Of a stretch of 64,000 nucleotides of DNA, positions 21,001 through 53,036 are shown one piece after another. The stretch's first letter is position 1; each line of letters opens with the position of its first letter. The position numbers and the translations under genes are program-made. The notes beneath the pieces were generated by a model, which made no database searches, was not told the origin of the DNA, and worked only from the letters and a program-made list of their open reading frames with translations. The stretch is from positions 129-64,128 of the forward strand of contig JBFMEN010000052.1 in NCBI GenBank assembly GCA_040753435.1. Direction: 5' to 3'. Source of the DNA: Candidatus Omnitrophota bacterium. GTDB lineage: Bacteria > Omnitrophota > Gorgyraeia > Zapsychrales > JANLHA01.

Positions 21001-24000
21001 TTCGCAAAGGCCGATCCTCAAATCTTCCTCGGCGTGACATTTATGACATTCGCCGATGAATGGTGGAAGTCCGGGAACGCTTCGACGCATGATACGCACG
21101 GCTCCGATTTAAGCGTCTCCGGAGACGGCCAGACCAATGAAGAATGGTGGGGATTCGTCGATGTGAACCGTAATCCTCGCCGGGTTTTCGAAGAATTCAG
21201 GAAGTTGTGGGGCGGTTTGGGCGAAGAGAAGAAAGATCTTGATGCGATGTCGAAGGCCGGGATCGAGAAGAGACTGGAACAGTTAAAGGCCCAGCGCGCG
21301 GATCTGGTCAAACAACAGGCGGAAAAAGCGGCCGAGCTGAAGAAAACCGAGCCGGTTGATGTTTCCAGCCTTGAAGCCAAACAGCGGATACGGCAGACGC
21401 TCAGGGCTGAAATTGAGGACATTCGTCAGAAATTATCCGCCGAAGAAAGAGAAGCCCGGCCAATCATAGGCGAACCCGATGACGGCGACGAAGAAAAAAC
21501 TCCGTCCGCGGCTTACAGCATTCCCGCGGTTGAGGAGTTTATGCGGGATAAATTCGCTGTTCCCGGTGAAAACGGAATCGAATATCTCAGACAGGAAGAA
21601 GCCGAAGCGCTTTTAGGTAAAAAGCTTAACTGGGAGCCTGGAGATACAGCTGCTAGCGACTGGAAGTTAAAAAACAAGGCGGGGGAGATTATCGGATTAT
21701 CTCAGCAGCTGCTTGATCTTAGCGCGGCTTTCAAGGCAGGCAAGTTATATTATGATGCGAAGGGCAACTTCTCATATACAGGCAATCCGGAAGACAGGGT
21801 TGTCGCAACAATCAATAATAATATGCAATTCTTCCTTCCGTTCACGCCGAGGATGATTAAAGACTATCGTGAAAAAGGCATGTACCGGTTAGACCGGCAC
21901 GAAATATTTAAATTCAACACCAAGTATGTTTACTTCCTTGATAAGAATATGAACGATCGAGGCGACGAAGGCGAGTTTAAGTATAGTGACATTCAAGAAA
22001 AGGATGAAAAATTGCTGGCGCAGGGATACCAACCCTTAAGAACCGCCAAGGTCAAAAATATTCCGATCTATGATGAAGACGGAAACTTTACTGGAGAAGT
22101 TGATACAAAGGAATACCCGATTACGATGAATGATGAAGGCCGTGCGATTTTTGATCAATGGGACAACATTCTAAGAGGCGGCAGACAAGTCTGGCACGGA
22201 GGGCTGACGTTGGCTCCGATCGGCAAGAAGTCGTATGCGGATTTGGACGGCGGCGGCGAAAAGCTTGATGAAATAACTCCGAGAGCTGTCGATGCCGAGT
22301 TTATCAGAAAGGATTACAGAGAAACCGATAATAAATATGTTTATTACCAAATCCTCGAAATCCAGAACCGTTTTAACGGCGAAGTTCGTCAGGAAATTCA
22401 GAAGATTCGCAAAGATCCGGATCATCCTGGGACAAACTATTCACGGCTAGTGAGAAAATATGAAGGCGTCTACAAAAACGGCAGCTTTGTCCCGAGGAAG
22501 GTGACGGTTTTCGGTTACAACGGATTCCATAATGTCCCAAGTACATCAACGACATATTTCACAAATGGAGAGGGTGTCATCACGGATGCTAAAGGAAATA
22601 TTCTTGATGAGAAGGATTTGAAAACAGAGTTCGATTCTCGGGCAACGACATTGGAGAAAACAGAAGCAAAGAAAAATACCGAAGGCCACATTTTCTCTAA
22701 TATTGAAAATAAGACAATCAACTTGAGTCTGGAAGAAGAAAAGGATCGGCAAGGACGCGTGATCAGAACTGTCGAAGGTGATAAAGTTTCTACTTTGTTC
22801 TATGAAGGTCCGGCCGGCGCGATTGATCTTTCATACAAAGGCGAAACCCGCGTCAATGGAAGGCTGATTGATGAAAACCTTCTCTATTATGCCAGTGGCG
22901 ACCGGATTAAAGATATCAGTAAAGCGGATGTTTATAGATTATTTAACGGTGAACATATCATCTTTTATCGTGGTTACAAGTATTATCAGATTTCTTCTGA
23001 GGAAGGGGAAGAGGTAACCATTGCCGTTCCTTATCAGCAGATCAAGAACGCGAAAGGTCAGATTATCGAGACGCGTCTTGGAAGCGGGGAATGGGAAGAC
23101 TTTGCTCCGTCAGAAAAAGGCGCCAAATTGATGAGGCCGGGAGAGCCCTTCAGCAATACATACACGACCTATAGTTTCTACCTTGATGAACTGGGCAAAG
23201 GCGCTGTTCACTGTTTTGATTCGCCGGATGTCGCTATTAAGACAGTCCGGACAGTGACCCAAAACGGAGTCGAGGAGATCGAAGCTTTTGCCAACACGAC
23301 AAGGCTGGTGGATGGAATTATCCGTTATAAAACTAAGCGCGGGCTTGTTGAAGACAGCGTTAACCAAAAGTTTGCCCAGGCAGAAGATAAGCGCAAGTGG
23401 TTATTGGATTATTTGAAAGACAGCAAGCATGAAGGAGACATTCCTTTTGGATATATTATGGAATCCAAGGATGAACGCAAAGACGGCGAAGGGCAGCTTA
23501 AGATCCTTTTGACAGACGCCAGGGAATTCAATCAATTCGGGTTTCAGAAAGACGGCGCGATCAAGTACATTACATTCCTGGATTATCCGGCTAAAGGCGA
23601 TGACCGTGTTGTCATATCCAGTGTGACGTATGAAGTAAAGCGTGACGAAGGCGGGATCATAGAGGACAGGGGCGCATATGCGGATGAAAAACAGATCGTT
23701 ACGGATGGCAATTCCCGTATAGTGATTGCAACTGTACTCGAGATTAATCGTGAAGGCCGAGAGGTTGCGGTTAAAGTTCCGGTTATTGTGACCAGTACGC
23801 ATGATGAGAGGCGTTCCAAGCAGAGCATTACGAACCGCGCGGTAAGACTTGATGATGGACGACTGCTCGCTGAATTCCATACCGGCAAGCCCCTGCGTGA
23901 TAATAAATTAATCGTGCTCTTTAATGGTCAGCAGTTGCCGGTTTCAACTGAACGCATTGATTGTTTAACTATGAAAAAGGGAGAGCCTGTTTTTGAACAC

Positions 24001-27000: not shown

Positions 27001-30000
27001 CTGGCCTGGCTCTCGTTTGATTACGCGACCTACGGCGAACGATGGGGCTGGGTGACCAAGATCACGGCTTTGTCTGAACATGGGTTCAATACGATTGTCC
27101 GCGCCGCTAAAGACCTGGTCGATACGGATGTGAATGTGGGTAAAGGTCTTATGAGAAAGAGCGCTTTTGATGATATGGCCGGCCGCGAATATACCTCTGA
27201 AGATACGGCCATGAGCAATAATCAAGTCCCGGCAGGCAAGCAGTCACACTACACCCACAAGATCCGCATCATGCAGTCGGTTGAAAAGACACAAATGGAG
27301 GCCCATGGGTTTATTACCCGTTTCGGTTCGTCAGTTGTTGAAATGTTGATCAGCGGCATTCCATATCAGAAGTTCCTGAGTTCAGCGGCTCACTGGACAG
27401 TCAAGCTCGGAACGCTGTTTAGCCACGGTTTTTATGTGAACGAGACCTGGATCATCTGGGCCAATATCGTAATGGTCATTGCCGCGTATTTTCTGCCGCT
27501 TAATATTTACGCTTACCTGGCATTGCCGTATTTCGGTATCGGGCTTGGTCTTTCTCTCGCTAACGCCATCAACGCCTCCGCGCAATCGCTTCATACATAC
27601 AGATTCGGATGGTTACGCGGTGCTGTTGTTTACTTCGCCTTCTTCTGGTTGTACCTTGCCTATTACACAGCCTTCATTCCGGTGCATGATCAGAAGGTAA
27701 TGGAAGGATTGAAGCGCCAGGTTATTTTCTCTCTCAGTCCGCGTATCAGTGATTCGATACGTCATCCTGCTAAAGAAGTTTATAAGCGCTTTAAGCCTTC
27801 GATTCAGAAGGGAATTATAATTTGGGCGTTCCTGCTGTTGGCGCCGTTCCATCCCGTGGCAACTGTTATTAATATTTTCTTCTTTACCATGACCTTAAGC
27901 TGGATCTTCGCGCCGTTCCTGTTTAACTACCATCCGAAGTTATTGGCACGAATAGGGCTGGGATTGAGAGATTCTGTTTTGGGAATCTGTTTCGCGTTAA
28001 AGGATATGCCCTTCGATTTATATGCAAGGGTTAAGAAAATGATAAATGACAAGAGGTTTAGAAAACTGGTTGCAAGGAAGGCAGAAGATAATAAAAATAA
28101 AAAAGAAATAAAAGAAATTTTTGCTAAGAAAGATCCGCTGATTTTTGCCAAAAAGATGAAAGAAAAGGCAGCAGAGATTTGGAATGGTTTGGAAACAAAA
28201 GAACAGATAATTGTTGAATTAAAGATGTGTGATACGGAGGGAAAAGCTATAAAAGGTCAGAAAGAAATGATGATCCGCAACTTCTTCTTTGAACTCGTTG
28301 ATCATATTGATCAAGATGGATTGCTGCGCGATGCCGGACAAGTTTTTGACCACGCCGAAGATGCAATCATGAAGCCGGAAGGCAGAGACGCCGGGAAAGA
28401 CGCGAAGAAAGGCTCTGATACAACGCTTCGTTCCTTCGCGCTTCCGGCTGCGCTGATCACCTATGGCATGACGACCGCCAACACCAACGTCGTCGCGGCC
28501 GGTCTCTTGAGCCTCATCGCCTTCGCCGCCTGGTTCGCGCTCAGGACTCCGCTCAGATCGTTCCGGTCGATGAGTTTTGTCAAAGCGCTCTTCTCCCAGT
28601 TCGCTTTCATTTATGAACAGGGGGTCCTCAAGATCCGCGTAGAGACGACCGGGGAAGCCGATGAGACCATTGCCCGGCAAGAGAAAGCGGCCAGGGAAGC
28701 CGAAGCGGCTTTACAGACAGCATTTGCTCAGCGCCGAACGGGATCATCGCCCGTCGGCTCCGTTGTTCACACATCTGCTTCTTCCAGGAAAGAGTTAGCC
28801 TTAAGGGTCTGGCGAGATTACTTTGAAGGAAAGGTCGGGCAGGATCCGGCCATGCTGGCCGAGGTAATTGAGCTTCTCAACGCCCAGCCGGAAGTCCGCG
28901 ACGCCGCCATGATCGCCGGACCCGACAGTGAATACAGCGAGTTCTGGAGAAACGCAGCCCGCAAGGCCGCTGAAGCCGCCACCGCCGCCCAGCCGGAAGA
29001 TGACGATCAGAATCAAGAAGATAGCCGCGTTGGGCACATTAATGCTGAAACCGAAAAAGCTTTTTCGATGGAACAATCCGATAACGCCATGGTGACTGAA
29101 TCTTCTGACATTGAGTCGGACAAGAGGACGCAGGCCAAGGTTCAAGAACCGCCAATCCTTGAAGGGTATAGAAAAATTTATGAGGAGATATACAAGAAAT
29201 CAATTTCGAGGCCGTTTGGAACTAATCCTGAAAATCCGGAATTGGCGACAGACTGGTTCTTGACCGAAGAAGCTGCACTGCCGCACTTTGCTATTTTTGT
29301 TAATCCCTCACCTGAACTTGCGCAAAAAATCTTGTCCATTCAGCAGGAGTTTTTCCTTCGGTTACCGCGATCGATACAGCAAAAATTCGTCCTTATACAG
29401 CCGCATGATTTCCATGTTACGTTTACAGGCGTAAACTTTTTTAATGAAGCAACTGATTCTGAAAAAGCAGTTCGGGCGGCAGCAGAGATTGTTCAGAAAA
29501 GACAGGGATTGACGCCGTTTGAGTTGAAGCGCATTGGGGTGTTTGAAGGCGGAGCTATTATGATTGAGGCCTATCCCAAATCTGATGAATCTTTGCGTGC
29601 CTTAACAGCAATTCATCAAGAGCTGCAGCGCTCCTTAAATCGACAACCGATGTTTGCCTTGCCGTTGTTCCATCTGACCCTTGGATATATAACGACGCGT
29701 CTGACACAGGAAGAACATCAAGAATTAGTAAACATTATTGAACAGTATCGAGGGGATTTTAATTTAGAGTTTGCTTTTGATAGAGCGATGACTTACAGAT
29801 GGGATATTGACCCCGATGTGAAATCGGGAAGAGCCGCGATAACAAAAGAGAAATTTTTTGATGTGAAAGAACTGTCTGTGATCGAGATCGGGAAAGAGAA
29901 TATCAAAAATGATTCAGAAAAGAATTTTAACAACGGTTCGACGGTTCTTTCCTTCGCGTTGCCGACCGCGGTGATCGCTGCCGGAATGACAACCGCCGAC

Positions 30001-33000
30001 ACCGGGGTCGTTGCCGCGGGCCTCTTGAGCCTCAGTGCTTTCGCCGCCTGGTTCGCGTTCAAGACTCCGTTGAGAACATTCAGCCCGTTGAGTTTTGCCA
30101 AAGCGCTTTTCTCCAAATTTGCCTTCATCTATGAACAGGGAGTCCTCAAGATTCGCGTTCAGACTTCCGGCAAAGTCGACCTGGCCGCCGATGAAGCCGA
30201 GCGCAATAAAGTGGACAACTCCATAGTATCTACAGCAACGCCTTCCATTAACAAACAAACGCCTGTCGGATCGGTCGTTCATACGTCCGCTTCGTCCAGA
30301 AAAGAGTTGGCCTTAAGGGTCTGGCGCGATTACTTTGAAGGAAAGGTCGAGCAGGATCCGTCCATGATGTCCGAAGTTATCGAGCTTCTTAACGCCCAGC
30401 CGGAAGTCCGCGACTCCGCTATGATGGCCGGACCTGACAGTGAATACAGCGAGTTCTGGAGAAATGTAGCACGAAAAGCGAAAGGCGAAGAGCGAACGGC
30501 GAAGAGCGAAACGCGAAAAGATGATTCAATATCGGCCGCCGCACCTGATGATGAAGAGATCAAAGGGGAAACGATTCCGGCTGCCACCAACACCGCCATT
30601 AACACAAACACTGACACAATCACTGACACTAACACTATTCCCTCCGACGCCGCGATGATTTCCGCGATTGAAGAAAATGCAGCCGCGCTCACCGCCCAGC
30701 CGAGGGTCATTATCGTTGCGGGCGTCTCCACCGCAGTCAAGAGCAGATGCATCAACAGTCTTCTTAAGGAATTTCAGGATCGGTTTATTTCGCCTCTCCC
30801 GGTCCGCGATCAATCCATGCTTTCGAAATTAAATTCTGTTGAGGCCGTGAGACCAGTCACTGCAGCGAACACTTCCGTGGCTGGAAACTCCAAAGGGACC
30901 GGGTCCGCGGCCTCGCCGATGATTACGGGAACGGACAAAGTTGAAATCAGCGTCGAGGCAAAGATTCTGCACAGGGCCGGTCAACTGCTCGCCGGACGGC
31001 CCGCGGCGCCGGATATTGATGAACTTGTTCGTTTGTTAATGAACGATCCGGTTGTCCTGAGTCTGGCCGGATCAATGGAAGCGGCCCGCCAGATCCTTGC
31101 CGCGATGAAGGAACCGTTGAGAAAGGTTCCGGAAAATAAAACCCGAAAGGTGGAACCTGTCGAGCGGACCGATGCGGAAAGATCTTTTGATTCTGCCCGC
31201 CGCGACCAAGCCATGGTCTCGCAGGTCGCGACCGGAATTGATAAAAATAATATTGTTCAATCGGACATAACGGAGGAAAGTCCATGGAAACATTCAATGA
31301 AATTCAGGTCCGAAGCGTCTTTGATGGAAGCGAGGGACGATTTGTGGCCGCCAGTTACGATGGATGGACCTACGAGTACAGGTTCTTTATTCATCAGAAC
31401 GGCGAGATCAAAGGAAGGACGTCCGGTGATTCCTGGGTCGACATCAGCTCAAACACGGCCGGGATCATCAGATCAAAGGTGGACCGGTATCTCGGATTTA
31501 ACCCGGAAGAACAGGACGCCTGAAACATTATTCACGCGGCTTTTGAAAATAAAGTCCCGGAGTGATGAGGCGGTGTTAAGTGATTTCAGGAGCTGGAGGA
31601 TCGAAGGGTTCAGACAGGCTCCCGGATACAAGATCCAAGAAACCGGCGGCGATGCAGCGATACTCGCGGACGGAAAAGAAAGAAAAGAGGGATTGTTTGA
31701 TCTGCGAGATCGCCTGGTAAGGGAATTGGGCGAGGTTTCAACTCTTCTGGAAAGGGTCCCTCCGGCCGTCAGCATTTTCGGCGGAAACAATAGCGGGGAA
31801 AAACTTTACCTGTTAAGTTCAATCCTGGGATTTAATTTGGCCCGGCGAGGGTTCACTCTTCGGACGGGAGGCGGACCTGGAGTTATGGAAGGTCCTCTTC
31901 TGGGCGCCATCCAGGCAAGAGGAGCCTCTCTCCCGGTTAAAATAAGACTTTCTGTCGCAAGAACGCTGCTGCCGTTCCTGAAGTACGTCCCGCCGTCTGT
32001 TTCTCAACGAATTCTGTCGGGGCAAAACCAGGGATTCAAGATATACATTCCCGACCAGCCGCTGAGTCCGCATGTCGAGATTCCAGCGCATTTCACGCAT
32101 TTTATTCCGAGAAAGATTTCGTTAATGCGTGCGGTTAAAGCGATCGTTGTTTTGTCCGGTGGTTTTGGGACATTAGACGAGCTTTTTGAGTCCATGCGGA
32201 CCGACGGGCATATCGTAGCCCTTCCCTTCTGGAAACCCGTTATTAAGCAGATTGAAAAAGCCTGGGCGAACCGCGGCTGGGGAGAGACGATATCAGAAGA
32301 GATTTCCTTCAGCGAGGACCCGGAAAAGAACGACGCCGGCGAGATCTCTGCTAACATTGTTGATCTGATTGGACAAATGGACTACGAATTCAATCAAAAG
32401 AATATGGAGCTTCCGTCCGATTTGAATTCATTAAAAGCGATGATCCGTGAAGCGCACCGGGCGCTGACCAGCTTGGCATCTTTCGAGAAGGGGATTGTTG
32501 TCGCGGGGAGTTCGAACCCTGCACATATTCATGAGATTGTAATTGCCCGGAAGCTTGGAGCGTGGGCGGCTAGAAACCAGATGCCGCTGCGCTTCGGCGG
32601 GACAGGCCCGGTCACAAAGGCCGCGATTGAGGGGATGGGAAGCTGGTATGGCCGGATTCAAGCCGTCCTCATAGATGAAGATACGGGCTGCTGCAGGGAT
32701 AAAGATGTTCTAAGGCAACTATATTGGAACGGTAAAGTTATTAAAACTATTGACCGGATCATCCATAAACTCTTGTTGAAGGAAAACGTCCTGGGTCATG
32801 TGATTTTCCCCGGGACGTGGGGAACCGTGGATCTTTTGACCGATATCATGGATGTGCGGCATATTCATTATTTCTCGAACAAGAGGGTCTGGCCCCAAAC
32901 GCCGCTGATTCTGGTTGGGAGAAGGTTCTGGAATCCGATCATGGAAACCGTTTTTCAAACTCTCGAGTCCTATTTCTCGCCGGGAGGCCGCGAGATTGTA

Positions 33001-36000
33001 CAGATTGTCGACACCAGCGATGAATTACTTGCGAGACTAAATATTCTTTCTCGGGGATCGAAGGTCTTTGCTCAAACGGCAGATCTCGCTGACGAAACGG
33101 CCGGGAGAGTTCGGCAGAACATCCGCGGCGATGCAGCGATACTCGCGGACGATAAAAATTCCCGGAACACAAACGGGCCTGGATCATTTGTTCATGAAAA
33201 ACAGATGGTATGGGAATATGGAAATTCTGAAATCATGACTTCCCGCGCTCGCCGTGCCCGGAGCTTCATCGGGGAAAACCTGCAGAGAATATTGAACAAT
33301 GGATTTTATCCGCGCCCGGCGAAGGTGGTCAATCTGGGATCCGGGTTGGGAGAGTTTTCGGCTTCGCTGGCGGAGCTTGTTCCGGTCAGGATGTTTGATG
33401 TCGACATAACAAACTTTGCCGGGAGACATAACAAGTCTGTTCCCTTTGTCCAGGCGGATGAAAGACCGTCAAACAGCACGGATTTTGATAAAGATGACGA
33501 CACGCTTGTCATTCTGAAAAGATCGGCGCGGGAATGGGCGCTGAAACAGAGAACGGGATCTCTGGTTCTGCGCGGAAAGGTCCTGCCCTATGCCTATGGA
33601 ATTGTTCTCCAAAAGCCGTTGACTCAAGAGAACCGATCGTCGGATCCTGCCATCGCCGGTAGTGAGAGGCAAGCCGGAACAGACGCGGGCCTTTCAGATC
33701 TTGAACAGAACGCGAAAGACCGGGCGATGTTGACGAAGGGAGAAGAGAACGGAAAAGACGCGGCGACCGGATCCGTTAAAGGGCAGCGGACCGCAGGTAA
33801 CGACAGAAAGAAGATTGCGCTGGCGCTGAAGCTTATCGAGAACCCGGATATCAATATCATTGCAAGGCTTTTTGATGATCCTGATGAGGAGGTCCGCATC
33901 CTTGCGTCGATTGCGGGGGCCCGCTTTGTTGTTCAAAACCTGCAGGAGCTGATTGCTCATCATCTGCGCAATCCATTAACCGGTATGGGAGGTTTTATCA
34001 ACAGGATAGGAAACAAGGTCTCCCGTCCGGCAGAAACAACCGGTCCTGAGGCGATTGATCCTGACGCGGATATTCAAAGAGCCGCCAGCAAAACCAGGAT
34101 TGCCGGCAAGACGGCAGAGATTATCGGTGCCATGACCGATATCGAAAAAGATTTAAACGAAATCTGCCTCTATCAGGAAGAACAGGATGAATCGGCGCTG
34201 GATGCGTCGGTTATTTTCCTGTCGGGAGCGCTCAATGTCCTTTCGGAAAAATTCATCGCCATGGAGGGTATGCTGCGTGAGTTAAACGCGCAGGTCCTGG
34301 AATTAACGGCTCAAACCGCGCCAGCTTATATTAAGGAGAACGAGTCGATCACGAGGGCGATGGAAACGATAAACAGGGAACGCGGCCGGATCAAAGAAAT
34401 ATTCGATTCGTTGAGAGCGATGTCGGAATACAAGGATTTGGATTTTACGGAAACCAGCGTCGCGGATGTGGAGGAAGAAATCTCCGGCCTTGAAACGGAC
34501 GGCGTCAGGGAAGGGGCTCCCCTGGCCAAAAGGATTCTTTATGTCGATCCCAGGATCAGGACAGGAGAAAAACGAGTGATGGCGCCGAGAGCGCTTAAGG
34601 AGATATTGCTCCACTTCTTTAAAAATGCCGCGGAAGCAAACGCGTCAAATATCGGCCTTGCCTTCCGCGAGGAAGGGCGGCGGCTTATTGTTGAAGTTCT
34701 GGATGACGGCTCGGGCATCTCTGAGGCCGACGCACAAAGGCTCTTTTTGCCGTTGTATTCGCGGCTTTACACCAGGTCTCTTTTCCTGAGCAGACTTCAG
34801 TCTTCATTAAAAGCGATGGAAGGTAATTTGTCCGTTGATATTGCCGGCGCGGATCTTATTAGAAAATATTTTAGTGAAGCCTGGCCGCAGCCCGGTATTC
34901 ATGCGGCGATTGCCAGGGCGGCAAGGGGCAGGGAGGAAGCCCAGGACATCCTCCGCGTTCTGGTTTTGCGCGAACTTAATTACGATCAGCTTGTTGATCT
35001 CCTTGAAGGGAAAGTCAAAAACGTCGCGGACGTCGCCGAAAAAATTATCCAGAAGAGAGTATCCGTCAGATATGGAAGGAAGACAGGCAGGGAGATCCTC
35101 GGGGAATTTACGAGAAGCATTCCCGATCTTTCCGATTTTGAAATTCTGGCGCTCCTGGAAGAATCGGCGCAGTGGATGCTTCCGTCCCAGGCATTCCGGG
35201 CGATGTTGGCCTTCGGGCTTCGCGAGCTTAAAGAAGCAGAGATCTTCACGGCGCTTTCCGTTCCTCAAATCAGGGAAAAGATTATAAACAGCGGCGGGAC
35301 CGTTGATGCAGTTGTCGGGAAAATCCAGGAGTTGAGGCAAGGCGTCGCCGGTTACCATACCCGCTTCATTCTTGAGTTTCCTTTGATTTTCGACGATCCG
35401 GAACTCGTCGTCAATCTTTATGAGATGTCGAAAAATATCAACTCGTTCCATAGCGTGACGCAGAGACTCTTCGCGGGAGGGGCCGCGGAAGATATCAAGC
35501 CCGGGGAAATCAGGGATGTTCTCGAGGACATCACGCTCTTTGTCGGAGAGAGATTTGATTTCGGCCTTCGGTATTACAGCGACGCTTCGCTCAAAGGCAG
35601 CGCTGTTTATGATGAGGTTGTTTCCCATTTATCCGCGTTGCAGGATCGGCTGGAAGACTATCGCCGCGGGATTCTCAAAGGCCGGCAGCAGCCTGTTTAT
35701 GAGCAGATGAAACTGCTCGAAGATTTGCTGTTAAGGACACTTTCATTCGGGAAAAGGGCGCTGGGATGGCATTACGGCAACTCCATGAATTCTATGACAC
35801 CGTTTAAGGACATTGAACGAAGCGTCTCTTTTGCCAAAGAGCTGCTAGGATTTTCCGGCATCGATACCGGCAGTCTGAAGATCAATCTTGAGTTCGAGGA
35901 AGGGGAGCTTCCATATATTCCTGTTTTCTCATATCCCGACATCATCATGACGATTATTGAAGAGCTTTTATCGGGAGGAGTGAAGCGTGGAAGCGCGACG

Positions 36001-39000
36001 GAGATAAACATCAGGGTCGGAATGAAAAAGAACATTCTGACCGTAGAGTTCTCGGATAACCGCAAGAAGGTTTCTTATATTGATCCGAAATGCATGTTTT
36101 TGCAGAGATCCATGGGGCGCGGGCGAGGGACGGGCTTTGGTATTTTTGCCCTTCGACGGATCGTTGAGGGCGTGCTCGGAACCATGAGCATCGAAAACAG
36201 GGGCGTGACGACCAAGTTTATCGTCAGTCTTCCGGTAAGCGCGCAGCCGGCCGTTCTCGGGCTGCCGTTGTCGAAACAGTCGGGCACTTACATGTTAAGC
36301 GGCGAAGATGCCCCGGTCAAGAAGGCGCTGGCCCGATACCTGTCCGGAGCGCTCGGTTTAAGGTATATCAACGCACGCTTCCTTGAAGAGGCGGTCATTT
36401 ATGTTCTGATCGAAGAATTGCTTTTGCCGGAAATAAAGAAGGCCGGAATCAGCATGGATAATGAAAACGCGATTGATGCGTTTATTACAGAGAAAATCAA
36501 CGAGATCGAAGATTTTGTCTCCGCTTATTTGAGAGAAGACGGTGTCGACTATAGCAGGGAACCGTTAAGGATCAAAATTCATGGAGAATACCGAAATAGT
36601 GAGGGGTTGTATCTGTCCGGAGTGTTGAAAGACGTCATTAAGGAATCTTACCGGCAGGATTCCGGAAGGAAAGTCATATTTGAAAGGGTCGTTCGAATGC
36701 CGTTCTTTAAGACATTGCTGGAAACATTTATGGTTGACGGGGGCGGGAAGATCCTTGAAAACGGAGGATTTAACGGGATCATTCTGCTCAACGGTGCGGT
36801 CATCGGAAACGGAGATCTTTTGGCCAAAAAAGAAAGCGGGGCGATCCGGTTACGCGTTGACGGTGAAAAGAAGAAAGGAACAGTCTCAAGGAAATTGACG
36901 GTCTGGGACGGGAATGAAACCGGAGTCTTTGCAGAAATTGATTTGAACGCGAAGAACAGAGAAAAGATCGCGGAGGCTGTTATTCATGCCCGGCAAAAAA
37001 TGGACGGGGCCATGCTGACGGGATTGCAGGAGAAGAGAGATGCGCAACCGGACAAGTCGACGGCGGCAATTTCTTCCGGTATTTCCGGTTCGCTTAAAGA
37101 TCAGGTGATTTTGGCTAATGGCGACAGGGCCATGATTGCCGAAGGTAACGATCCGGTATTTTCGCAGATTTTGACACCTTTTGAAAAAGAGAATGATGTC
37201 ATCGTTCCAAATGTTAAAACAGGACCTGCAATCAAGCTGATTTATCAAGTGGATCATATGACTATTTCCGGGATCGTAGGGTTGTCCGAAACCAGAGAGA
37301 CTACCGGAGATTTCTTGCTCATGTCCGGGACCACGGCGGTGCGTGAAACCAGGAAGCTTGCCAGAGATTCCTTCATGCCTTTTAATCGCAAGCTGGATCT
37401 CTGGACATATGCCCCTATCGGTCTCAACCCCGTTGGCAGATACAGGAACCGGGGCATCAGTGAGACATTTTTAGCCTGGCTGTCGTTGTTGGCGTTGAGA
37501 CAAGGCTTTGATGAAATTTCCTGCCGCACCAGAGGGGTTCATAACGCCTACGTCTTCCGGAAATTCTTTGCAGATAAAGTTGTCTTTCCGTCGGGTAAAA
37601 TAATTGACATGAAGTTTTTCCCCTATGCCCTGACCAAGGCTGATAACTCCCTGCTATGGAATAAAGATGCGTTTGAGTTTTTCGGTCGACCCAGGATACC
37701 TGCGAATGTTCATATGGCATGGGCTGATTACGCGATGATTGGTTCACAAAGAACAAATTTACCGTCGACCGATTTCCGAAAGTTCCTTCTTTCCCCCGCC
37801 ATCGAGACGCCTGTGCCGGATCAGGCTACGGTGAAAAACTTATCAGACAGCGAGCCGCGATCGGAATCCTCTTCCCGGGATAATGCTGTTCTTGGCGATG
37901 CAGAAGATGATACTGAGCCGAAATATTCTTTTGGCATCACAACCAGAGGCCCGGGAGTGAGACTGGCGGTCCCGGGCGCGCCTTATAACAGGACGGAAAA
38001 ACTTGCGGATTCGGCGATGGTTACGGAAAACACGAAGCCTTTTGTAAATGATTATGTTAATGAGGAAGGGATCCGCGACGATATTGATCGGGTTATATCT
38101 GCCCTGGACGGCCTTCTGCTCAGGGATTTCTGTTCGGACTGCATGAGGAAAAAGATGCTCGCCCTGCTTGATTATCGTGGTCCCGGGGCGAATCTCGTGC
38201 GTAAGGCCGTACGGCAGGCCGTGTATTCAGCAGCCGCGTCTCTGCAAAACGGGAAACAAACAAAGGCGTCGAAAATACTCGGGATTTCAGGCGAGATATC
38301 AGGTCTTTATGAGGTCGTTATCAAGCGCGGGACGACACTGGAAGGGATTTATTTAGGGGAACTCTCGGATGTGAACGGAATCATCCGGGTGGGCGGCGTG
38401 GCGGTCAAAGAATTCGACGCGATCAGCAATAATACGGTCTTTGAATTTAAGTTCCACCTGACCCTCAGAAAACTGTACCAGCAGGTTTTCGGAATCGATT
38501 CCGCCGGCGCGTCTCATTTAAAGATTATCCGCAAGGCCGGACGGTTCCATAACATCAGAAACATTGTTTATTTCGGCGAAGTGGACTACGGGTTTGTGTC
38601 CAGGGCGATCCATGCGTTCCTGGTGAACAGGCGTCATCTCTTGCCGCGCGTTAACATTGTGAACAAGGGGTTGTCGGTAAAGTTTTCGTTAAACGAAATT
38701 AATGACTTTTTAACGAGCGAAGACGTCCTGAAACTGGTTAATGAAGAATCACGGGCCCAGGGAGCCCGCCATTATCTCGGCGACGTGATCCGGGAAAGAA
38801 AGAATATTATTACAAGGGGGATTCGAAGATTTCAGAAGGAGTTGCCGGCGTCAGCGAAGTTCGATGTAATCATCGCGATGAGTAATGCGCCGAAAGATGT
38901 TTTGAAAGATATTTCGAAACTGAAGCAAAAAACGAAGAGGCGCGATCATGCCATGTTAGTCAGGGCGACCGGCGGCGATGGATTCATGAAAACTTTTGCG

Positions 39001-42237: not shown

Positions 42238-45200
42238 ATGAGACACCCTAAAAAGGCAAACACCTATAATTTTTTCCAACGGTTAGTTTCTGGTTTTTTA
42301 GTTTTTGTATTTAGCTTGGGAGTAACATTTCCTCCCGATATCGCTCGAGCTCAAATATTACCGGACCTTTTGTCGCCAGGAATGATGGTCTCTCAAAGCT
42401 CCGGTTATGCCCCTGTTTTAATCAAAGGCATTACCGTCCATCCTGAGAATCCGTTAGCGTTTGATTTTATTATAGATACAGGCGATTCTGGCATTGAACT
42501 TAAAAGTCAGAGGTTCAGGCAGGAATCCTTGCGTCTGGTGAAATACTTTTTGGCGTCGTTAACTGTTCCGGCTAATGAGCTTTGGGTTAACTTGTCTCCT
42601 TATGAAGAAGATCGAGTGATTCCCCAGTCTTTCGGACTGACAGAAATGGGCATCGATTTGCTGGCGCAAGATTATATGTTGAAGCAGTTGACAGCGAGTC
42701 TGACGTATCCGGAAGATGAACTCGGAAAGAAATTCTGGAAAAGGGTTTATGAGCGCGCTTATAAAGAGTTAGGAACAACTTCCGTACCTTTCGACAATTT
42801 TCATAAAGTTTGGATTGTGCCTCAGGAAGCACTGGTCTATCAGAAAGACAATCAAGCATTTGTTGTTCGTAACAAATTAAAAGTGATGATGGAGGAGGAT
42901 TATTACGCGTTTCGACGGGCGCATGGTTATGGGTATGATATAGAGAAAAAATCAGCAGAATCTGACAACAGGTTGACCAGACTTCAAGCTAAAGTGATGA
43001 GGGAAATCATCCTTCCTGAAATCGAGAAAGAGGTTAATGAGGGAAAGAACTTCGCTCAACTTCGTCAGATTTTTCAAAGCATGATTTTAGCCACCTGGTT
43101 TAAGAAGAATCTTAAGGAAAGTCTTCTCGGACAGGTATATGCGGATCAGAAAAAAGTTAAGGGTGTGGATGTTGACGATCCGCAAGTTAAAGAAGAAATC
43201 TACCGGCAGTATGTGAAGGCTTTTGAACACGGTGTTTATAACTATATTAAAGAAGATTATGATCCGAATTTTCAAAAGATTGTTCCTCGTCACTATTTTT
43301 CTGGAGGGGCTTATGGTGGGAACATGCCTGCTGTACAGCAAACAGTTTATGCCGGAACAAGGCAGGACACCGCAGCATTACGTAATGAAGTTGCTGATGT
43401 TATAGAGGGTGATGGCAAGATTGGTGATGCTTCTATTGTTTTAGCGGAAACAAAGAACGAGGCTGCCTCCATAGAGGAAAAGGCAAAGAAGTTTGCAGGC
43501 CAGGGTGATGCGGCGATGCTTTCGGAGTATAAACCGGTGGTCGTTGCCTTTGGCGGTCCTGACGGCGTATTGTTTGAGTATGACCGATGGCACAAGACAT
43601 CTTTCGAAGATGCGGTCACTTTTAACAAGTTTTTGCAACTGCTTAATAAAGGGGTTGATGTTGTTATTATCAGCGATCAACGTTATTTTGATTGGATGAA
43701 AATTCCCGATGAGGTTTTGGAGTACAAGTTGGTTGAATTAGTCAATAAAAAGAAACCTGAATTAGGCAAAGCTTTAAGCGCCCAAGGGTGGAACTTTAGT
43801 GATTCCCAAGCGTCGGAAGTGATCACAATAATAAACAACAACGAAAAAGATTTTTTGAATAGCTTGAAAGATTGGGGGGATCAGTCTAAAAAAATCCTTG
43901 AAATGGATCTGCGTCCTAACTTTGTTGAGTTGGTTCGAAAGAAGAATCCTGATCTGTTAACGAATCTTGTGGGGGAGAAAGGACTGAAAGCTCGACTTGT
44001 TGAGCCCCTGCGAAAAGCGGCACCAGGCGCATTACAAAATTTAACGGTATATGCGTCAGCAGGAACTTTTAAAATAACTTTTGATGAAAACGGTGAGGAA
44101 ATAGAGGATCGTTCTTATAATATCCGCAACTCTATGGATTCCCGAAGCGCCGAAAAGATAAAACAAGCTATTGAAGCTATTGTGAAGGAAGTGTATTGGA
44201 GCGATTATCAGAAGCGGCCTCATGATTACCGTGAGGCTTATCCTGCTTATACCTTTGAAGGGTATGAACCCCAGGTTGTCCTGCACAAGAATGGTGATTA
44301 TGTTCAGGGGTTGACTGTCTTGTATTTACCTTCAGCTTTACTTGGAGCTCATAATCCATCAGAAAATAAGGGCATAGGAGATATTAGGAAAAAAGTTTTT
44401 GAAGTTATTAAGGAGAGGCTTTCTAAAGAGATTCATCCGTATATATGGGCCCATGGGCAATATACTCAAAATATGCGCGGGATGGTTTCCATTGATCTCC
44501 GACGCAGGAACACCGGGAAGGATTTTGCTCTTCGGGAGTACATGATGGAAAAAGGGGTTCTACCATCACAGATAATATCCTTCTGGAGTTTGGATGAGTA
44601 TTCGGGTGATCAGCCAATGAGCTATGTTGAAGAGATTACTCGATTTATCAATTCAAAAAGACAGGGGGATGAATTTTTTAAATCGCTGGGGATAGGGTTA
44701 GGCGGTATTTACTACTGGCTTCATTTTCTTTTACAGAAACATCTTGGAAGTGTTAGCGAGATAGTGACCGCTTATAATGAAGAAACAGCCCGGCACCCAT
44801 CGTTAGTAGGAGCTAAAAAATATATTGAAGAGAGCAAAAATGGACAAAAGTTCCCAAGAGAAACAGAAGATGCCATAGAGAATCTTTATGAGATTTATCG
44901 AAGTTTTGCGTTGACATTTTCTGAGGCGCCTGCGCCCTGGACGGCTATTTATACAGAAGCCTTCGAATTATCTGATAAAGTGAAAGACGCATTGAATGAA
45001 TTTAGTGATGTGTTTTATAAAGTTGAGAGTGTTGAAAGTTTGTTCAAAGAGGCGGATATAATTTTTTACAAGAGGGATGTTGATTTTAAGACGTTTTACC
45101 AAGGGGTTGATCCTCGAGCCGCGCGAAACATTAATACCTTGCTAAAGGCCTATAACGGCGACGAAGAAAGACTTAAGAATGATGTGATAGCGGCTGCAAA

Positions 45201-47196
45201 TTCGATGAATATTAGTATAGCTAGGGTCTTGAGCGGCTACTATCAGGATCGGTACGTTTTTCGGTACAAAACTCCATTATTTGAAACGCTTAAATCAAGA
45301 GCGCCTCCGGTGGATTCGAAAGTTGTTTATTTAGGTGGTGGCGGTGTGGCCACGACAACTCTTCTTCAAAAATTTATGGAAAAAAAATTCAAAGAACTCG
45401 CCTGTATTATTTCTTCTTCTGATGATGGTGGATCTTCCAAAGACATTATGATGAGTTTGTTTAAGAGATTCGGATTTTATTTTATTCCCCCAGGGGATGA
45501 CGCAGGATTGAACATCTTTTTATCGAATGATAATTTTAAAATTTTTACACTATTCTGGTTGGAATCACAAGGAAAAGATCTTCCGGACGAGGTCTTAATT
45601 AGTGCCCAAAAGAAAGACCTCGGGAAATTTCGTATAACTGCGGATTCCATCTATCCGGCATGGAGAGAAAGAGTTTTAAAGGAACTGGAAGCATTGCGCG
45701 ATCCAGCGAAGAAACAAGAGATTGAGAAAGCACTGGCAAAGTCTTTGGGACTTGGTGAAATTAATATTGATTATAAGAGTCAACGCCACCTGGTATTTTT
45801 GACAAGTCTGCTGTCTTTGGGCGATCTTGTAGATCGAGACTTGGTTACCCCCGGGATTGTTGGTTTGAATAATGCCTCGACAGCGAATCTGCTGATGATA
45901 GGTGATGCATACGATTCCAGGGTTATTCGTGAAGGAATGCCGGTTGATAAAGATTCCAGACAGTTTCTTCTTCATCAAATGTTAGAGCTAGGAGATGCTC
46001 AGCCTGTTCCTGTAAGTTATGATTATGAGCGTAGCGCGTTGATTGCTTTTGATAAAGGCGGAGAGGTTCTTGAAACAACTCAGACCAGGATTACTGATAA
46101 GGCGCATAATAAGCTTACCCATGATCTTTATTTTTCTCATCGGACAGCAGAAGAGCGAATGAAGCGGTTTGATTCTTCAGATGATCAATCTTATCCCAAA
46201 GCAGCTCAAAAGGCTGTTGAGATTATCCAAAATTCAGAAATGCTGGTTTCAGGGAATGGATCATTGTGGACATCTTTGATGCCGGTTTTGATGTATAAGG
46301 ATGTGGCGCAGGCAGTACTTGATAAACGCGCAGAAGGAGCGCCTGTAGTGTTTATTGCGAAGATCAAGAGTGATTTGGAGACGGCCGCCATCAAAATGAA
46401 CGATTCAGGGGAAGCAGAGGTTTTGGAGCGAGATGGAAAATTAGTTCTTAATTTAGAGCAGATGAATCTTGTTGAGCAGCTGAAGGCCGTAGTTCGTCAT
46501 ATAAGACGTTCGGTCGGCAGGGATGATATTGAGCTTAAAGATGTTTTTTCCCATGCCATTATTGCGAATCTAAGCAAGGAGGCGATTCGGATTTTGAAAG
46601 AGAAAGAGAGTTTGACAGAAAAAGAGATTGGTGCCTTAAGAGAAGGTGGTGCCCAGGTAAGCAAGCTCCTGAAAGGGATTCAGCCTGTAGTTACTCAGGA
46701 AGAAAAAGAATATGTAATGAATCAGGGGTTGAAGATTATAGAAATCAGCGATAAGGATATCACTGGGATTGAAAAAGGGAAACCCTTGTATGATAACGAT
46801 AATTTATACGAGGTGTTAAAGAGTATTAAGCCTGAGGTCTTTGCTGATTCTGCCATGTTGACAAAAGAATCGTTACAGGTGACACCGGTAAAGGCCGGAG
46901 ATCAAAAAGCAGTAAAAACAGGGGGAGAGCAAGTCGGCGGTATTGATCTTAATCCGGACTATCTAGATCTTAGGATTAAGCGCGATGGAAATGGCGTGCC
47001 GCTTCCCATGTCTCAGCAATCTATTGAGCAACTGCGCCAGATCGATGGATTTCTGCCTGTGATTATTAATGTGACTCCGATCCAGAATTTTCCGATGGCG
47101 CTGGGTCTTGATGTGAGTTCTGAAAATGAGGATGGGACGACCAATAATCGTTTAAGCCATCTGGATGTCTTTGATAAGATGGCAAGGTTGAATTGA
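42238..47196 (+). CDS. Secreted modular paralog 1 (1652 aa): signal peptide, shared N-terminal domain, CofD/YvcK-like (UPF0052) core, shared C-terminal module
   Basis: RBS aggag is followed by ATG 42238. The N-terminal hydrophobic signal is LVSGFLVFVFSLGVTFPPDIARAQ. About 360 aa are homologous to the N-termini of the next two genes. VVYLGGGGVATTTLLQKF...LACIISSSDDGGSSKDIM...FIPPGDDAGLNIFLS (about 45320-45530) matches the YvcK/CofD GGGTG, DDGGSSG and PPGD motifs. The C-terminal module is GGIDLNPDYL...LPVIINVTPIQNFP. Confidence 0.9.
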   Translation: MRHPKKANTYNFFQRLVSGFLVFVFSLGVTFPPDIARAQILPDLLSPGMMVSQSSGYAPVLIKGITVHPENPLAFDFIIDTGDSGIELKSQRFRQESLRLVKYFLASLTVPANELWVNLSPYEEDRVIPQSFGLTEMGIDLLAQDYMLKQLTASLTYPEDELGKKFWKRVYERAYKELGTTSVPFDNFHKVWIVPQEALVYQKDNQAFVVRNKLKVMMEEDYYAFRRAHGYGYDIEKKSAESDNRLTRLQAKVMREIILPEIEKEVNEGKNFAQLRQIFQSMILATWFKKNLKESLLGQVYADQKKVKGVDVDDPQVKEEIYRQYVKAFEHGVYNYIKEDYDPNFQKIVPRHYFSGGAYGGNMPAVQQTVYAGTRQDTAALRNEVADVIEGDGKIGDASIVLAETKNEAASIEEKAKKFAGQGDAAMLSEYKPVVVAFGGPDGVLFEYDRWHKTSFEDAVTFNKFLQLLNKGVDVVIISDQRYFDWMKIPDEVLEYKLVELVNKKKPELGKALSAQGWNFSDSQASEVITIINNNEKDFLNSLKDWGDQSKKILEMDLRPNFVELVRKKNPDLLTNLVGEKGLKARLVEPLRKAAPGALQNLTVYASAGTFKITFDENGEEIEDRSYNIRNSMDSRSAEKIKQAIEAIVKEVYWSDYQKRPHDYREAYPAYTFEGYEPQVVLHKNGDYVQGLTVLYLPSALLGAHNPSENKGIGDIRKKVFEVIKERLSKEIHPYIWAHGQYTQNMRGMVSIDLRRRNTGKDFALREYMMEKGVLPSQIISFWSLDEYSGDQPMSYVEEITRFINSKRQGDEFFKSLGIGLGGIYYWLHFLLQKHLGSVSEIVTAYNEETARHPSLVGAKKYIEESKNGQKFPRETEDAIENLYEIYRSFALTFSEAPAPWTAIYTEAFELSDKVKDALNEFSDVFYKVESVESLFKEADIIFYKRDVDFKTFYQGVDPRAARNINTLLKAYNGDEERLKNDVIAAANSMNISIARVLSGYYQDRYVFRYKTPLFETLKSRAPPVDSKVVYLGGGGVATTTLLQKFMEKKFKELACIISSSDDGGSSKDIMMSLFKRFGFYFIPPGDDAGLNIFLSNDNFKIFTLFWLESQGKDLPDEVLISAQKKDLGKFRITADSIYPAWRERVLKELEALRDPAKKQEIEKALAKSLGLGEINIDYKSQRHLVFLTSLLSLGDLVDRDLVTPGIVGLNNASTANLLMIGDAYDSRVIREGMPVDKDSRQFLLHQMLELGDAQPVPVSYDYERSALIAFDKGGEVLETTQTRITDKAHNKLTHDLYFSHRTAEERMKRFDSSDDQSYPKAAQKAVEIIQNSEMLVSGNGSLWTSLMPVLMYKDVAQAVLDKRAEGAPVVFIAKIKSDLETAAIKMNDSGEAEVLERDGKLVLNLEQMNLVEQLKAVVRHIRRSVGRDDIELKDVFSHAIIANLSKEAIRILKEKESLTEKEIGALREGGAQVSKLLKGIQPVVTQEEKEYVMNQGLKIIEISDKDITGIEKGKPLYDNDNLYEVLKSIKPEVFADSAMLTKESLQVTPVKAGDQKAVKTGGEQVGGIDLNPDYLDLRIKRDGNGVPLPMSQQSIEQLRQIDGFLPVIINVTPIQNFPMALGLDVSSENEDGTTNNRLSHLDVFDKMARLN

Positions 47197-52800: not shown

Positions 52801-53036
52801 GTGTAAACTTGGGAGACAGGGAGGTTATTAGTAGTGACGTTGGAGGCATTGACTTAAATTCTAACAATTTAGAACTAAATGTTCAGGGTGATGAGGTAAA
52901 GATGAGCCCTTATCCCGGAATTTTAAATGAAATTTCCGTTAATGGATTTGTTCCCGTTATCATTGATGTCGCTCCAATTTCAAACGTTCCAATATTACTT
53001 GGTATTCAATCAGTTGAAACCACCGGCGTTAGATAA
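49887..53036 (+). CDS. Secreted modular paralog 3 (1049 aa): signal peptide, shared N-terminal domain, divergent middle with a methyltransferase-like motif, shared C-terminal module
   Basis: It starts 5 nt after the stop of the previous gene (translational coupling). Signal peptide VVSACLIVILAVTLSVPAQAQS. The N-terminal domain is conserved (ITIYPDNPLKFDFIVSPGDDNLKGDALKKEADKLIKYFMASLTVPADEMWVNLSPYEKDRIIADGL...). VLRIRDEGVSTGTLSENLF...KYIATDL (about 52060-52170) resembles SAM-MTase motifs I and II. The C-terminal module is GGIDLNSNNLELN...FVPVIIDVAPISNVP. Confidence 0.9.
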   Translation: MKNPKSTIYRVVSACLIVILAVTLSVPAQAQSALTPSVIEGLNLPAPGTMISLSSAYNPPIIKGITIYPDNPLKFDFIVSPGDDNLKGDALKKEADKLIKYFMASLTVPADEMWVNLSPYEKDRIIADGLSQTELGRDLLAQDYILKQVTASLMYPEEKLGDDFWKMVYAKAQVQFGTTEIPVNTFNKVWIVPEKANVYVHGNNIFVVDSYLKVMLEEDYLALETNLKHANHGVGIIPKDQIEETSDVSRQVIREILIPEIEKEVNQGKNFASLRQIFNSMILATWYKKNLKESLLGQVYVNQNKVEGVDLKDKQVKEKIYNQYVKALEKGVFDFIREDDDPIAQERIPRRYFSGGIQGADNVGERIMSYAEIEKVFVGDEALITVELRNPKNPSERLVDTGATMKKLWTKIKKISVSDNDRWFLRDGNLSHWEQIIDGQVEFDKEKMVITFSVGNNKGETQRISVKVKKVVSKNEIVKGAHLEAGALRFLGVADWYDTKFQGETVLLEENPYNINYISTDSIIGVSEFLFQNEPSSIAYPIIETAIKSDRKFFAQAANRSGDEVRGWISKALGYFPFQSLDWESVPKQFLAKALARNELTRYENILRLEDVLFAGQIDVNEKTNSNAKALFSLNPVRRLRAYMALKQTNDLEEAKLLKEMYPRASIAMKKLVRFLFYWVTREEAMVTGEYYGITRKGNSRLKDTKERLDQLLPTLLERFPNEVLRIRDEGVSTGTLSENLFRHVASKTKEFKYIATDLVTKLIYITNSEKGYTAVFTDEQDGHTDNFIQIKQGNRIYTPQGVNRVVRVLGEDAASFTAEVRSAFEMYKQEGGLSDKYVTEEVGLFDFEVEKLAKTDERFELSQHNIFQKVPTQEQGHLTILSNVLVPTYYSQSELVEGIKSAGLNTVEGGLVLVINESYLGTGLGPVSDGIYVHPFSVFERRGNQLVRLFFSSIGPQKGFNRAMKAEDIESVNLGDREVISSDVGGIDLNSNNLELNVQGDEVKMSPYPGILNEISVNGFVPVIIDVAPISNVPILLGIQSVETTGVR

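Follow-up and report, generated by a model that had tools for sequence, protein, structure and literature searches.

We examined a 64,000-nucleotide stretch of contig JBFMEN010000052.1 from a Candidatus Omnitrophota bacterium (hereafter the window, in whose coordinates nucleotide (nt) positions are given) and, within it, a block of domains at nt 31770–36240 that an initial annotation had described as tandem LOG domains, a methyltransferase-like domain and a histidine-kinase core. We think it fairly probable that the block comprises three motif-bracketed modules in the probably cytoplasmic tail of a multi-pass membrane protein, namely a pair of LOG domains of which one is live and one is dead, a small domain, and two tandem pseudokinase-like cores. 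The whole interval lies within a single giant open reading frame (ORF; nt 22–41643, + strand, as are all of the features inside it described below) that is present in the ORF list and translates without a stop codon into 13,873 residues (aa), in agreement with the initial annotation, which had placed all of the modules in one giant multi-enzyme protein. An artefactual origin of the ORF was ruled out by the 41.6 kb over which it stays open together with several independent domain matches.

As we envisage the block, each of its modules would be bracketed by a short linker motif, D-x-A-[IM]-L, copies of which partition the region into residues 10544–11037 (module 1, 493 aa, the tandem LOG unit), 11037–11233 (module 2, 196 aa, a putative small alpha/beta domain of unproven identity, the candidate methyltransferase) and 11233–12328 (module 3, 1,095 aa, two tandem histidine-kinase-like cores and ~250 further residues). 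The block does not reveal a new signalling system; its novelty is one of detail, namely a portable LOG unit that appears to pair a live with a dead domain, two kinase-like cores that have decayed in complementary ways, and the linker motif.

A Tandem LOG Unit with One Complete Active-Site Motif Set

Each of the LOG motifs quoted in the initial annotation was found in the + strand frame where it had been placed (GGGPGVMEG, nt 31867–31893; SGGFGTLDE, nt 32155–32181; FGGTGPV, nt 32593–32613; FPGTWGTVD, nt 32806–32832). The first domain, LOG#1 (nt 31747–32330), is type II-like and carries a complete active-site set, consisting of GGGPGVMEG, the pair R10697–K10698, and SGGFGTLDE with E10720, as well as an insertion of ~30 residues after the glycine loop. 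It was identified by the Pfam models LDcluster4 (E = 9.2e-13, 48.5 bits against a cut-off of 26.3) and Lysine_decarbox (E = 1.8e-8, 35.1 bits against 27), and matched LOG proteins in the PDB (5zi9, 1.6e-16; 5wq3, 4.2e-15), with the type II LOGs 5wq3 and 1wek among the best. The second domain, LOG#2 (nt 32524–33081), is LOG-like and was also identified by Lysine_decarbox (E = 3e-7, 31.1 bits against a cut-off of 27), but its residue at the position of the catalytic Arg is H10915 and at that of the motif Glu is L10938 (FPGTWGTVDL); in its alignment to PDB entry 9us2 (1.8e-4) the motif PGGFGTLDE stands opposite PGTWGTVDL. Both domains pass the PF03641 threshold, and the stricter subfamily model TIGR00730 was not reached (66 bits against a cut-off of 96.35). 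In an alignment of 60 sequences, R10697, E10720 and each of the glycines G10713, G10714 and G10716 of LOG#1 were present in all 60 and T10717 in 59; for LOG#2, His occupied the Arg position in 51 of the 60 and the motif Glu was retained in only 24.

Precisely this Arg and Glu have been identified as the catalytic residues and as invariant across the LOG subgroups, and the enzymes have been shown to function as dimers (PMC5379747). Two LOG domains are therefore present as had been proposed, since Pfam recovers both, but to speak of two LOG enzymes overstates the case because LOG#2 has lost both catalytic residues. LOG#1 has every residue known to be required for LOG chemistry, the conversion of a nucleoside 5'-monophosphate to the free base and ribose 5-phosphate. 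LOG#2, in contrast, has the LOG fold by homology and is, as judged from its residues, not catalytically competent; it would represent a conserved but catalytically dead LOG paralogue. We infer that the two domains together stand in for the LOG dimer, with one chain mimicking the homodimer formed by free LOG enzymes, and that each module would have a single live active site.

A phmmer search with nt 31720–35319 as the query against 1.84 billion representative proteins produced 957 matches at E ≤ 1e-3, of which the best 150 were examined. The best match lay inside the LOG pair for all 150, and both LOG domains were spanned in 59, so that the ~430-residue tandem pair occurs in at least 59 proteins. 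About half of these 59 sequences, whether whole proteins or fragments, exceed 1,000 aa (the longest has 7,260 aa, and many have 4–7 kaa) and the remainder are free-standing, with lengths of ~340–990 aa, mostly 430–610 aa. The named relatives belong to Candidatus Omnitrophota (several, e.g., with 36 and 35% identity), Elusimicrobiota, Chlamydiota, and Myxococcota. The closest, P0001, has 46% identity over 454 aa that include both domains and the intervening linker, and the free-standing homologue P0022 (453 aa), which aligns over residues 19–441, is close in size to the motif-bounded module. Judged by this distribution, the tandem LOG is a portable building block of many very long proteins that also exists as a free-standing protein of 430–610 aa. 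P0001 was the sole match in a word-indexed protein search with the whole block, and a genome scan with the tandem-LOG alignment found no giant-gene relatives among the matches listed, which were ordinary single LOG genes of 26–36% identity (generic FGTLDELF).

Among characterized enzymes, the type II LOG phosphoribohydrolases (CgLOGII, 5WQ3; TtLOGII, 1WEK) share with LOG#1 the GGGxGxM motif and the Arg–Lys pair, and the SGGFGTLDE of LOG#1 resembles the PGGFGTLDE of CgLOGII, including the Asp of hexameric type II proteins (PMC5379747). Unlike those enzymes, which are free hexamers, LOG#1 is fused in one chain to an apparently dead LOG within a giant protein, and its ~30-residue insertion and its TIGR00730 score below the cut-off are further differences. 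A second comparison is with PpnN (YgdH), the nucleotide 5'-monophosphate nucleosidase, likewise a LOG-fold enzyme flanked by extra domains, which acts on ordinary nucleoside monophosphates. The similarity to PpnN is weak (PDB 6gfl and 9hs1, ~2e-3; NF038390, 2.2e-8), with a score of 33 against an equivalog cut-off of 450 bits, and in PpnN a single LOG domain is flanked on either side by an unrelated one.

Two Kinase-Like Cores with Complementary Motif Losses

In the third module, each core would combine a helical DHp-like region with a Bergerat ATP-binding domain downstream of it. Judged from alignments to solved kinases and from residue positions, the catalytic motifs that appear to be lost differ between the two cores. 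The DHp-like region of core 1 (nt 33886–34428) has four long predicted helices, the first of which contains the H-box AHHLRNPLT (nt 33955–33981) with H11313. HATPase_c #1 (nt 34585–34870) retains the N-box Asn (N11535, in FKNAAEA) and the G1 box (DDGSGI, nt 34702–34719), and its G2 box is absent (LYTRSLF). The DHp-like helices of core 2 (nt 35590–35937) were recognized by eye, with no profile support, and hold the candidate H11869 in a poor H-box (VVSHLSALQ), 117 aa before the N-box position. They are followed by HATPase_c #2 (nt 35938–36240), a full-length Bergerat-type domain in which the G2 box, GRGTGFGI, is intact and aligned to that of KinB in the PDB search, the N-box Asn is replaced by Gly (ELLSGGVKRG), and the G1 position reads DNRKK.

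Pfam identified both ATPase domains with scores only slightly over the threshold, HATPase_c #1 with E = 7.2e-7 (30.1 bits against a cut-off of 26.4) over profile positions 3–80 of 111 only, and HATPase_c #2 with E = 3.6e-7 (31.1 bits against the same cut-off) over positions 4–109. The second HATPase_c-like domain of the initial annotation is thereby confirmed, and the AHHLRNPLT and DDGSGI motifs are present in the + strand frame where they had been reported. The alternative that a single HATPase domain had been split by a large insertion was ruled out, as the second match alone covers almost the entire profile. The HisKA model remained below its threshold (E = 0.006, 17.1 bits against a cut-off of 26.9, 19 residues only). 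The pattern H.[LIVM][RK].P[LIVM] occurs once in the 13,873 residues against 0.05 expected from shuffled sequences, and this single occurrence, together with its position upstream of a HATPase_c domain, indicates that the H-box is not a chance match. AHHLRNPLT also aligned His-to-His with KinB (3d36, SHEIRNPLT) and with 3a0r (AHEIRNPIT); the alignment to CpxA starts at residue 144. Almost all of the NCBIfam matches of the kinase-like part were sensor kinases, each far below its cut-off (e.g., AtoS, 2e-7, for HATPase_c #1; the DcuS/MalK family, 5.2e-6, for HATPase_c #2). The proposed kinase core is thus upheld as regards the two HATPase_c domains and the HisKA-like H-box, but the HisKA profile itself is below threshold and the cores are degenerate.

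HisKA kinases typically have an acidic residue after the phospho-acceptor His, which usually lies ~105–116 aa before the N-box Asn. In core 1 the residue after H11313 is His instead of Glu or Asp, and H11313 is 222 aa from N11535, about twice the usual spacing; the position 116 aa before the Asn, in a second DHp-like helix (LRELNAQV), is occupied by Arg (R11419). These features bear on the idea that module 3 is a working histidine kinase, in which HATPase_c #1 would phosphorylate H11313 (or HATPase_c #2 H11869) and the phosphoryl group would pass to an orphan receiver that in turn controls the neighbouring enzyme modules. The H-box His that is unique in the protein and aligns with those of KinB and 3a0r, the intact N-box Asn and G1 of the first ATPase domain, and the intact G2 of the second argue for such a kinase, as does the occurrence of receiver domains in 105 Omnitrophota long proteins (2026 preprint, bioRxiv 10.64898/2026.06.07.730766). 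A genuine receiver gene is also present in the window: a stand-alone CheY-like receiver at nt 63081–63446 (Pfam E = 6e-24), which the initial annotation had suggested as a possible cognate partner. It is a true receiver, but 21 kb of sequence that includes MutS and MutL separates it from the end of the giant ORF, and two relatives (L085 and L086) likewise encode a receiver at this site, with one or two unannotated ORFs between it and MutS, whatever adjoins it on the other side. This synteny with MutS gives no sign of a cognate partnership with the giant gene, and Pfam found no Response_reg domain in the giant ORF. Given also the His after H11313, the stretched spacing with Arg at the usual position, the sub-threshold HisKA match, the missing G2 of core 1, and the missing Mg-binding Asn and G1 glycines of core 2, we regard a working kinase as improbable, and the suggestion that a sensor kinase regulates or energizes the other modules is doubtful.

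We favour instead the reading that the two cores are nucleotide-binding or scaffolding pseudokinases or, at most, a weak non-canonical kinase, as far as their motifs can tell, and we do not think that they form a classical two-component sensor. With the HisKA sensor kinases (KinB, 3D36; 3A0R; CpxA, 4BIZ) they share the xHxLRNPLT motif, a helical DHp-like region, and a Bergerat domain with N and G1 boxes. They differ from those kinases in the residue after the His, in the doubled His-to-N-box distance, in the loss of G2 from core 1 and of N and G1 from core 2, and furthermore in having no sensor domain, no receiver, two cores in tandem, and no detectable orthologues. A single-sequence AlphaFold model of the module had a mean pLDDT (predicted local distance difference test) of 42 and, as its one feature of moderate confidence, four long helices at residues 13–193 (block means of ~50–83), a predicted arrangement that fits a DHp with an inserted helical hairpin.

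Searches for relatives of this module were negative throughout. Among the best 150 phmmer relatives (query to nt 35319), none resembled the methyltransferase-like segment, the DHp or HATPase segments, or those between the domains, and nt 33151–36400 had no homologue in a word-indexed search of 5.8 billion protein clusters. A scan of JGI metagenomes with the kinase-like module gave 54 pattern matches, none of them related, and a metagenome scan with the back-translated motif THF[IV]PRK[IM]SL gave three loci, none related by tblastn. PDB sequence searches with the helical region between the ATPase domains and with the tail of the module found nothing significant. A PDB match to a SAVED domain (E = 0.22) was dismissed as noise.

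The Small Module between the LOG Pair and the Kinase-Like Cores

The candidate methyltransferase module (nt 33244–33621) shows by eye a Rossmann-like pattern reminiscent of class I methyltransferases (VVNLGSGLG, FDVDI, FVQAD, TLVIL), in which VVNLGSGLG would correspond to the GxGxG of motif I and FDVDI to the acidic residue that ends strand 2, but such short patterns are unspecific. It had no match in Pfam at E ≤ 1, none in NCBIfam, and none among PDB sequences at E ≤ 10, and a local jackhmmer search that started from an Omnitrophota Methyltransf_11 domain recovered the seed alone and did not reach the module. A single-sequence AlphaFold (AF2) model had a mean pLDDT of 36 and displayed only a beta-alpha-beta pattern. 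The class I methyltransferase-like fold of the initial annotation could consequently not be confirmed.

A Linker Motif at the Module Boundaries

The motif D-x-A-[IM]-L has 17 copies in the giant ORF (aa 570, 836, 1115, 1166, 1435, 1684, 2183, 9608, 10544, 11037, 11233, 12328, 12975, 13115, 13327, 13351, and 13538) against 0.54 expected from its composition, an enrichment of ~30-fold. Across the window there are 22 copies in the frame of the giant ORF and at most one in every other frame. The copies use differing codons, which points to selection at the protein level and rules out a motif acting at the DNA level. They lie in Gly/Ser/Asp/Lys-rich linkers just outside domain boundaries, and in the block four of them delimit the modules: D-A-A-I-L upstream of the tandem LOG (nt 31651–31665), D-A-A-I-L downstream of it (nt 33130–33144), D-R-A-M-L between the methyltransferase-like and kinase-like modules (nt 33718–33732), and D-G-A-M-L at the close of the 1,095-residue kinase-like module (nt 37003–37017). 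No copy is present between residues 2480 and 9608, a middle part of 7,127 aa, about half of the protein, that hydrophobic segments delimit and that contains the M23, SLT, and GH2 domains; by our own arithmetic the probability of a motif-free middle under uniform placement is ~5e-6 (0.486^17).

The two D-A-A-I-L linkers are embedded in a 32-nt direct repeat (nt 31646–31677 and 33125–33156, 30 of 32 positions identical) that exactly brackets the 1,479-nt tandem LOG module; no other direct repeat of 18 nt or longer occurs in nt 31000–37500. Its 27-nt exact core occurs twice in the window against 0 expected. In the closest relative (L001), the tandem LOG lacks such a flanking 32-nt repeat.

The motif extends to other proteins of the lineage. 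Two copies are found in each of two of the large ORFs downstream of the giant gene (nt 42238–47196 and 47287–49881), P0001 has three, two of which flank its tandem LOG, a 1,938-residue protein of the relative L085 has one at the equivalent place, and the orthologous tail in the relative L087 has four against 0.1 expected. The motif is a candidate boundary signal for processing, docking, or recombination. Somewhat more specifically, and only tentatively, we suggest that it could be a lineage-specific signal that divides the giant protein and the adjacent large proteins into units, as processing or docking sites, is confined to those parts that are read as cytoplasmic, and serves also as a seam for the swapping of modules, for example of the repeat-flanked tandem LOG.

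Post-translational cleavage of giant proteins has been proposed, with the cleavage points stated as unknown (West-Roberts et al., 2023; bioRxiv 10.1101/2023.11.21.568195), and it is conceivable, albeit rather doubtful, that the giant ORF specifies a polyprotein in which D-x-A-[IM]-L marks the sites for a cytoplasmic processing or docking factor, releasing a 493-residue tandem LOG, a 196-residue domain, and a 1,095-residue double pseudokinase. Such a process would account for the excess of the motif in one frame, its codon-independent conservation in linkers just outside the domains, its absence from the M23/SLT/GH2 part, its recurrence at the same places in P0001 and the L085 protein and its enrichment in the L087 orthologue, and the motif-bounded units are the size of their free-standing homologues. 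It is opposed by the lack of an identified protease of matching specificity, as the only peptidase domain found, M23, is in a part read as outward-facing, and by the absence of motif enrichment in the more distant giant proteins with a tandem LOG. Moreover, in several of the ~210-residue repeats at the C-terminus the motif lies in the context VVRT.VAREEDQAML..AW..YY, inside the conserved repeat and not in an obvious linker, and a conserved helix cap or a recombination-prone linker would give the same counts. Processing would be compatible with the functions that we favour for the individual units.

Topology of the Giant Protein and the Placement of the Block

Pfam leaves most of the 13,873 residues unmatched. 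In addition to the domains of the block, it identified an SLT domain (near nt 19350) and a GH2-type TIM barrel (nt 20570–21180) and, below their cut-offs, a Peptidase_M23 domain (near nt 11920; 25.8 bits against 28.7) and a 2H phosphoesterase (2_5_RNA_ligase2; ~nt 29410–29800; 2.4e-5, 24.9 bits against 27). In a hydropathy scan, hydrophobic segments were confined to residues 2366–10014, followed by only one marginal peak at residue 13210; the first 2,366 residues have neither a hydrophobic segment nor a signal peptide. By the positive-inside rule, the charge distribution suggests that the N-terminal 2,367 aa are inside the cell, the M23/SLT/GH2 part outside, and the tail after residue 10014 inside. 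Free of hydrophobic segments, this tail of ~3,860 residues would probably be cytoplasmic, a location that would suit ATP- and nucleotide-dependent domains and that matches the cytoplasm-facing reading of such modules in the 2026 preprint (bioRxiv 10.64898/2026.06.07.730766).

Several side features of the protein were also observed. Its cysteine content is only ~0.1%. An internal duplication of 194 aa with 67.5% identity (nt ~28387–28968 and ~29911–30480; aa 9456–9649 and 9964–10153) flanks the 2H phosphoesterase domain, and both copies carry a hydrophobic, transmembrane-like helix (VVAAGLLSL.AFAAWFA). The C-terminus consists of repeats with a period of ~210 aa and 37–62% identity between copies (nt ~38989–41350, aa 12990–13777).

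A number of points weigh against our interpretation of the block. The topology comes from a crude hydropathy scan in which the number of membrane passes is ambiguous, and the tail could be extracellular, where ATP- and nucleoside monophosphate-dependent domains would make little sense. The two AlphaFold models are single-sequence and poor (pLDDT 42 and 36) and lend no structural support to the pseudo-dimer or to the kinase architecture. With the N-box Asn and G1 of HATPase_c #1 in place and a good H-box around H11313, the module may still be active to some degree as a kinase or ATPase. Lastly, our searches found no orthologue of the kinase-like module in which conservation of the H-box His could be gauged.

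The initial annotation had further drawn attention to nucleotide-signalling conflict systems, in which LOG/SLOG and 2H domains recur. Under that interpretation the block would be a defence or toxin system within a large protein, with the SLOG/LOG domains sensing or degrading a signal, the 2H domain processing it, and the kinase transducing it. The N-terminal half of LOG#1 does score best with a SLOG cluster 4 model (LDcluster4, as above), and the 2H-like domain, itself below its cut-off, lies ~2 kb upstream. However, PADLOC gave no match for any of five segments covering nt 29200–37002, the region from the 2H domain to the kinase, and neither a cyclase nor an effector nor a SAVED/CARF-type partner was found. 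Ordinary type II LOG enzymes align with the entire length of LOG#1, which has all of the catalytic residues, a hydrophobic segment intervenes between the 2H domain and the LOGs, and the giant gene is chromosomal, beside housekeeping genes in a context conserved in relatives. A conflict system is accordingly unsupported, and we consider it very improbable indeed.

Host, Relatives, and Locus Context

The MutS encoded in the window is 100% identical to a protein of a metagenome-assembled genome of a Candidatus Omnitrophota bacterium, and among 120 listed MutS matches all of the named ones are Omnitrophota or Omnitrophica, except one labelled Bathyarchaeia. The other genes of the window are ordinary chromosomal ones, for MutS, MutL, a KDPG aldolase, an HMGL-like enzyme, and a pilin-like protein. 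The exceptional MutS, P0178, is 72% identical to that of the window, and P0001 likewise comes from an assembly (L001; GCA_035477245.1, DATIKT010000045.1) that is labelled Candidatus Bathyarchaeia archaeon in NCBI. The label shared by P0001 and this MutS suggests a mis-binned Omnitrophota relative. P0001 also contains the C-terminal ~210-residue repeat of the window's giant protein.

In the relative L086 (GCA_022711395.1, JAKLFA010000005.1; MutS 66% identical), a called ORF of 33,383 residues lies at the syntenic position by HMGL-like and aldolase genes (region at 19759–22574), and giant genes thus seem to be a conserved feature of this locus, with a division into ORFs that differs from one genome to another. 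In the relative L087 (MutS 72% identical), the C-terminal repeats of the giant ORF recur (38–52% identity) at the end of a protein longer than 5,154 aa, the tail of which has Ham1-like and histidine-phosphatase domains in place of the LOG and kinase modules. In P0002, another protein from the Omnitrophota, LOG domains are accompanied by NUDIX, PRPP-synthetase-like, and phosphoribosyltransferase domains. With other nucleotide-handling modules thus occupying comparable positions in the tails, or next to the tandem LOGs, of relatives, the tail looks like an interchangeable array, which may consist of nucleotide-processing enzymes tethered to the membrane.

Three large ORFs follow the giant gene (nt 42238–47196, 47287–49881, and 49887–53036). 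Each matches the N-terminal ~370–450 aa (45–52% identity) and the C-terminal ~100 aa of the 1,938-residue protein of L085 (14546–20362 in that relative), and by these similarities the three look like paralogues. A CofD-like domain in the first was their only Pfam match.

Comparison with Known Giant Proteins and Implications

The Omnitrophota are a phylum known for giant genes, and HATPase_c and Lysine_decarbox are among the 20 commonest domains of their giant proteins (West-Roberts et al., 2023; bioRxiv 10.1101/2023.11.21.568195). A catalogue of 916 long proteins reports HATPase_c (PF02518) in 136 and a methyltransferase domain (PF08241) in 137 of the Pfam-positive long proteins, in one co-occurrence module (bioRxiv 10.64898/2026.06.07.730766). 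An embedded kinase core, which had been called highly unusual, is therefore not so within this group of proteins, and as its domain types have already been catalogued there the block represents a further example and not a new kind. Text searches of the two papers found the domains listed and, in the text so covered, no analysis of a tandem LOG unit, of the state of the kinase motifs, or of a linker motif.

The protein most closely resembles the 'Archaeovorin' type, with which it shares its phylum, a length of more than 10,000 aa, the multiple transmembrane segments predicted for a multi-pass membrane protein, cell-wall hydrolase domains (M23, below its cut-off, SLT, and GH2-like), a sequence mostly without Pfam matches, and HATPase_c, Lysine_decarbox, and possibly a methyltransferase on a tail free of hydrophobic segments. 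Archaeovorins, by contrast, have tens of thousands of residues and consistently contain glycosyltransferases, methyltransferases, NUDIX, and SecA-like/C39 domains, whereas no glycosyltransferase, methyltransferase, NUDIX, SecA-like, or C39 Pfam family was found in the 13,873-residue ORF at E ≤ 0.01. The protein is also shorter than the three Dockerin-type examples of at least 30,000 aa in the 2023 paper.

For the biology of these proteins, the LOG pair provides a hypothesis for how an obligately dimeric enzyme could be built into a single giant chain. As the kinase-like cores are degenerate, catalogues based on domain counts that label such regions as 'signal transduction' may overstate the signalling capacity of the organisms. 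The D-x-A-[IM]-L motif supplies candidate module boundaries, the absence of which was noted in the 2023 study both for structure prediction and for the question of cleavage. If the motif is indeed a recognition signal, the block would represent three separate products, and whether and where the giant proteins are cut would become directly testable.

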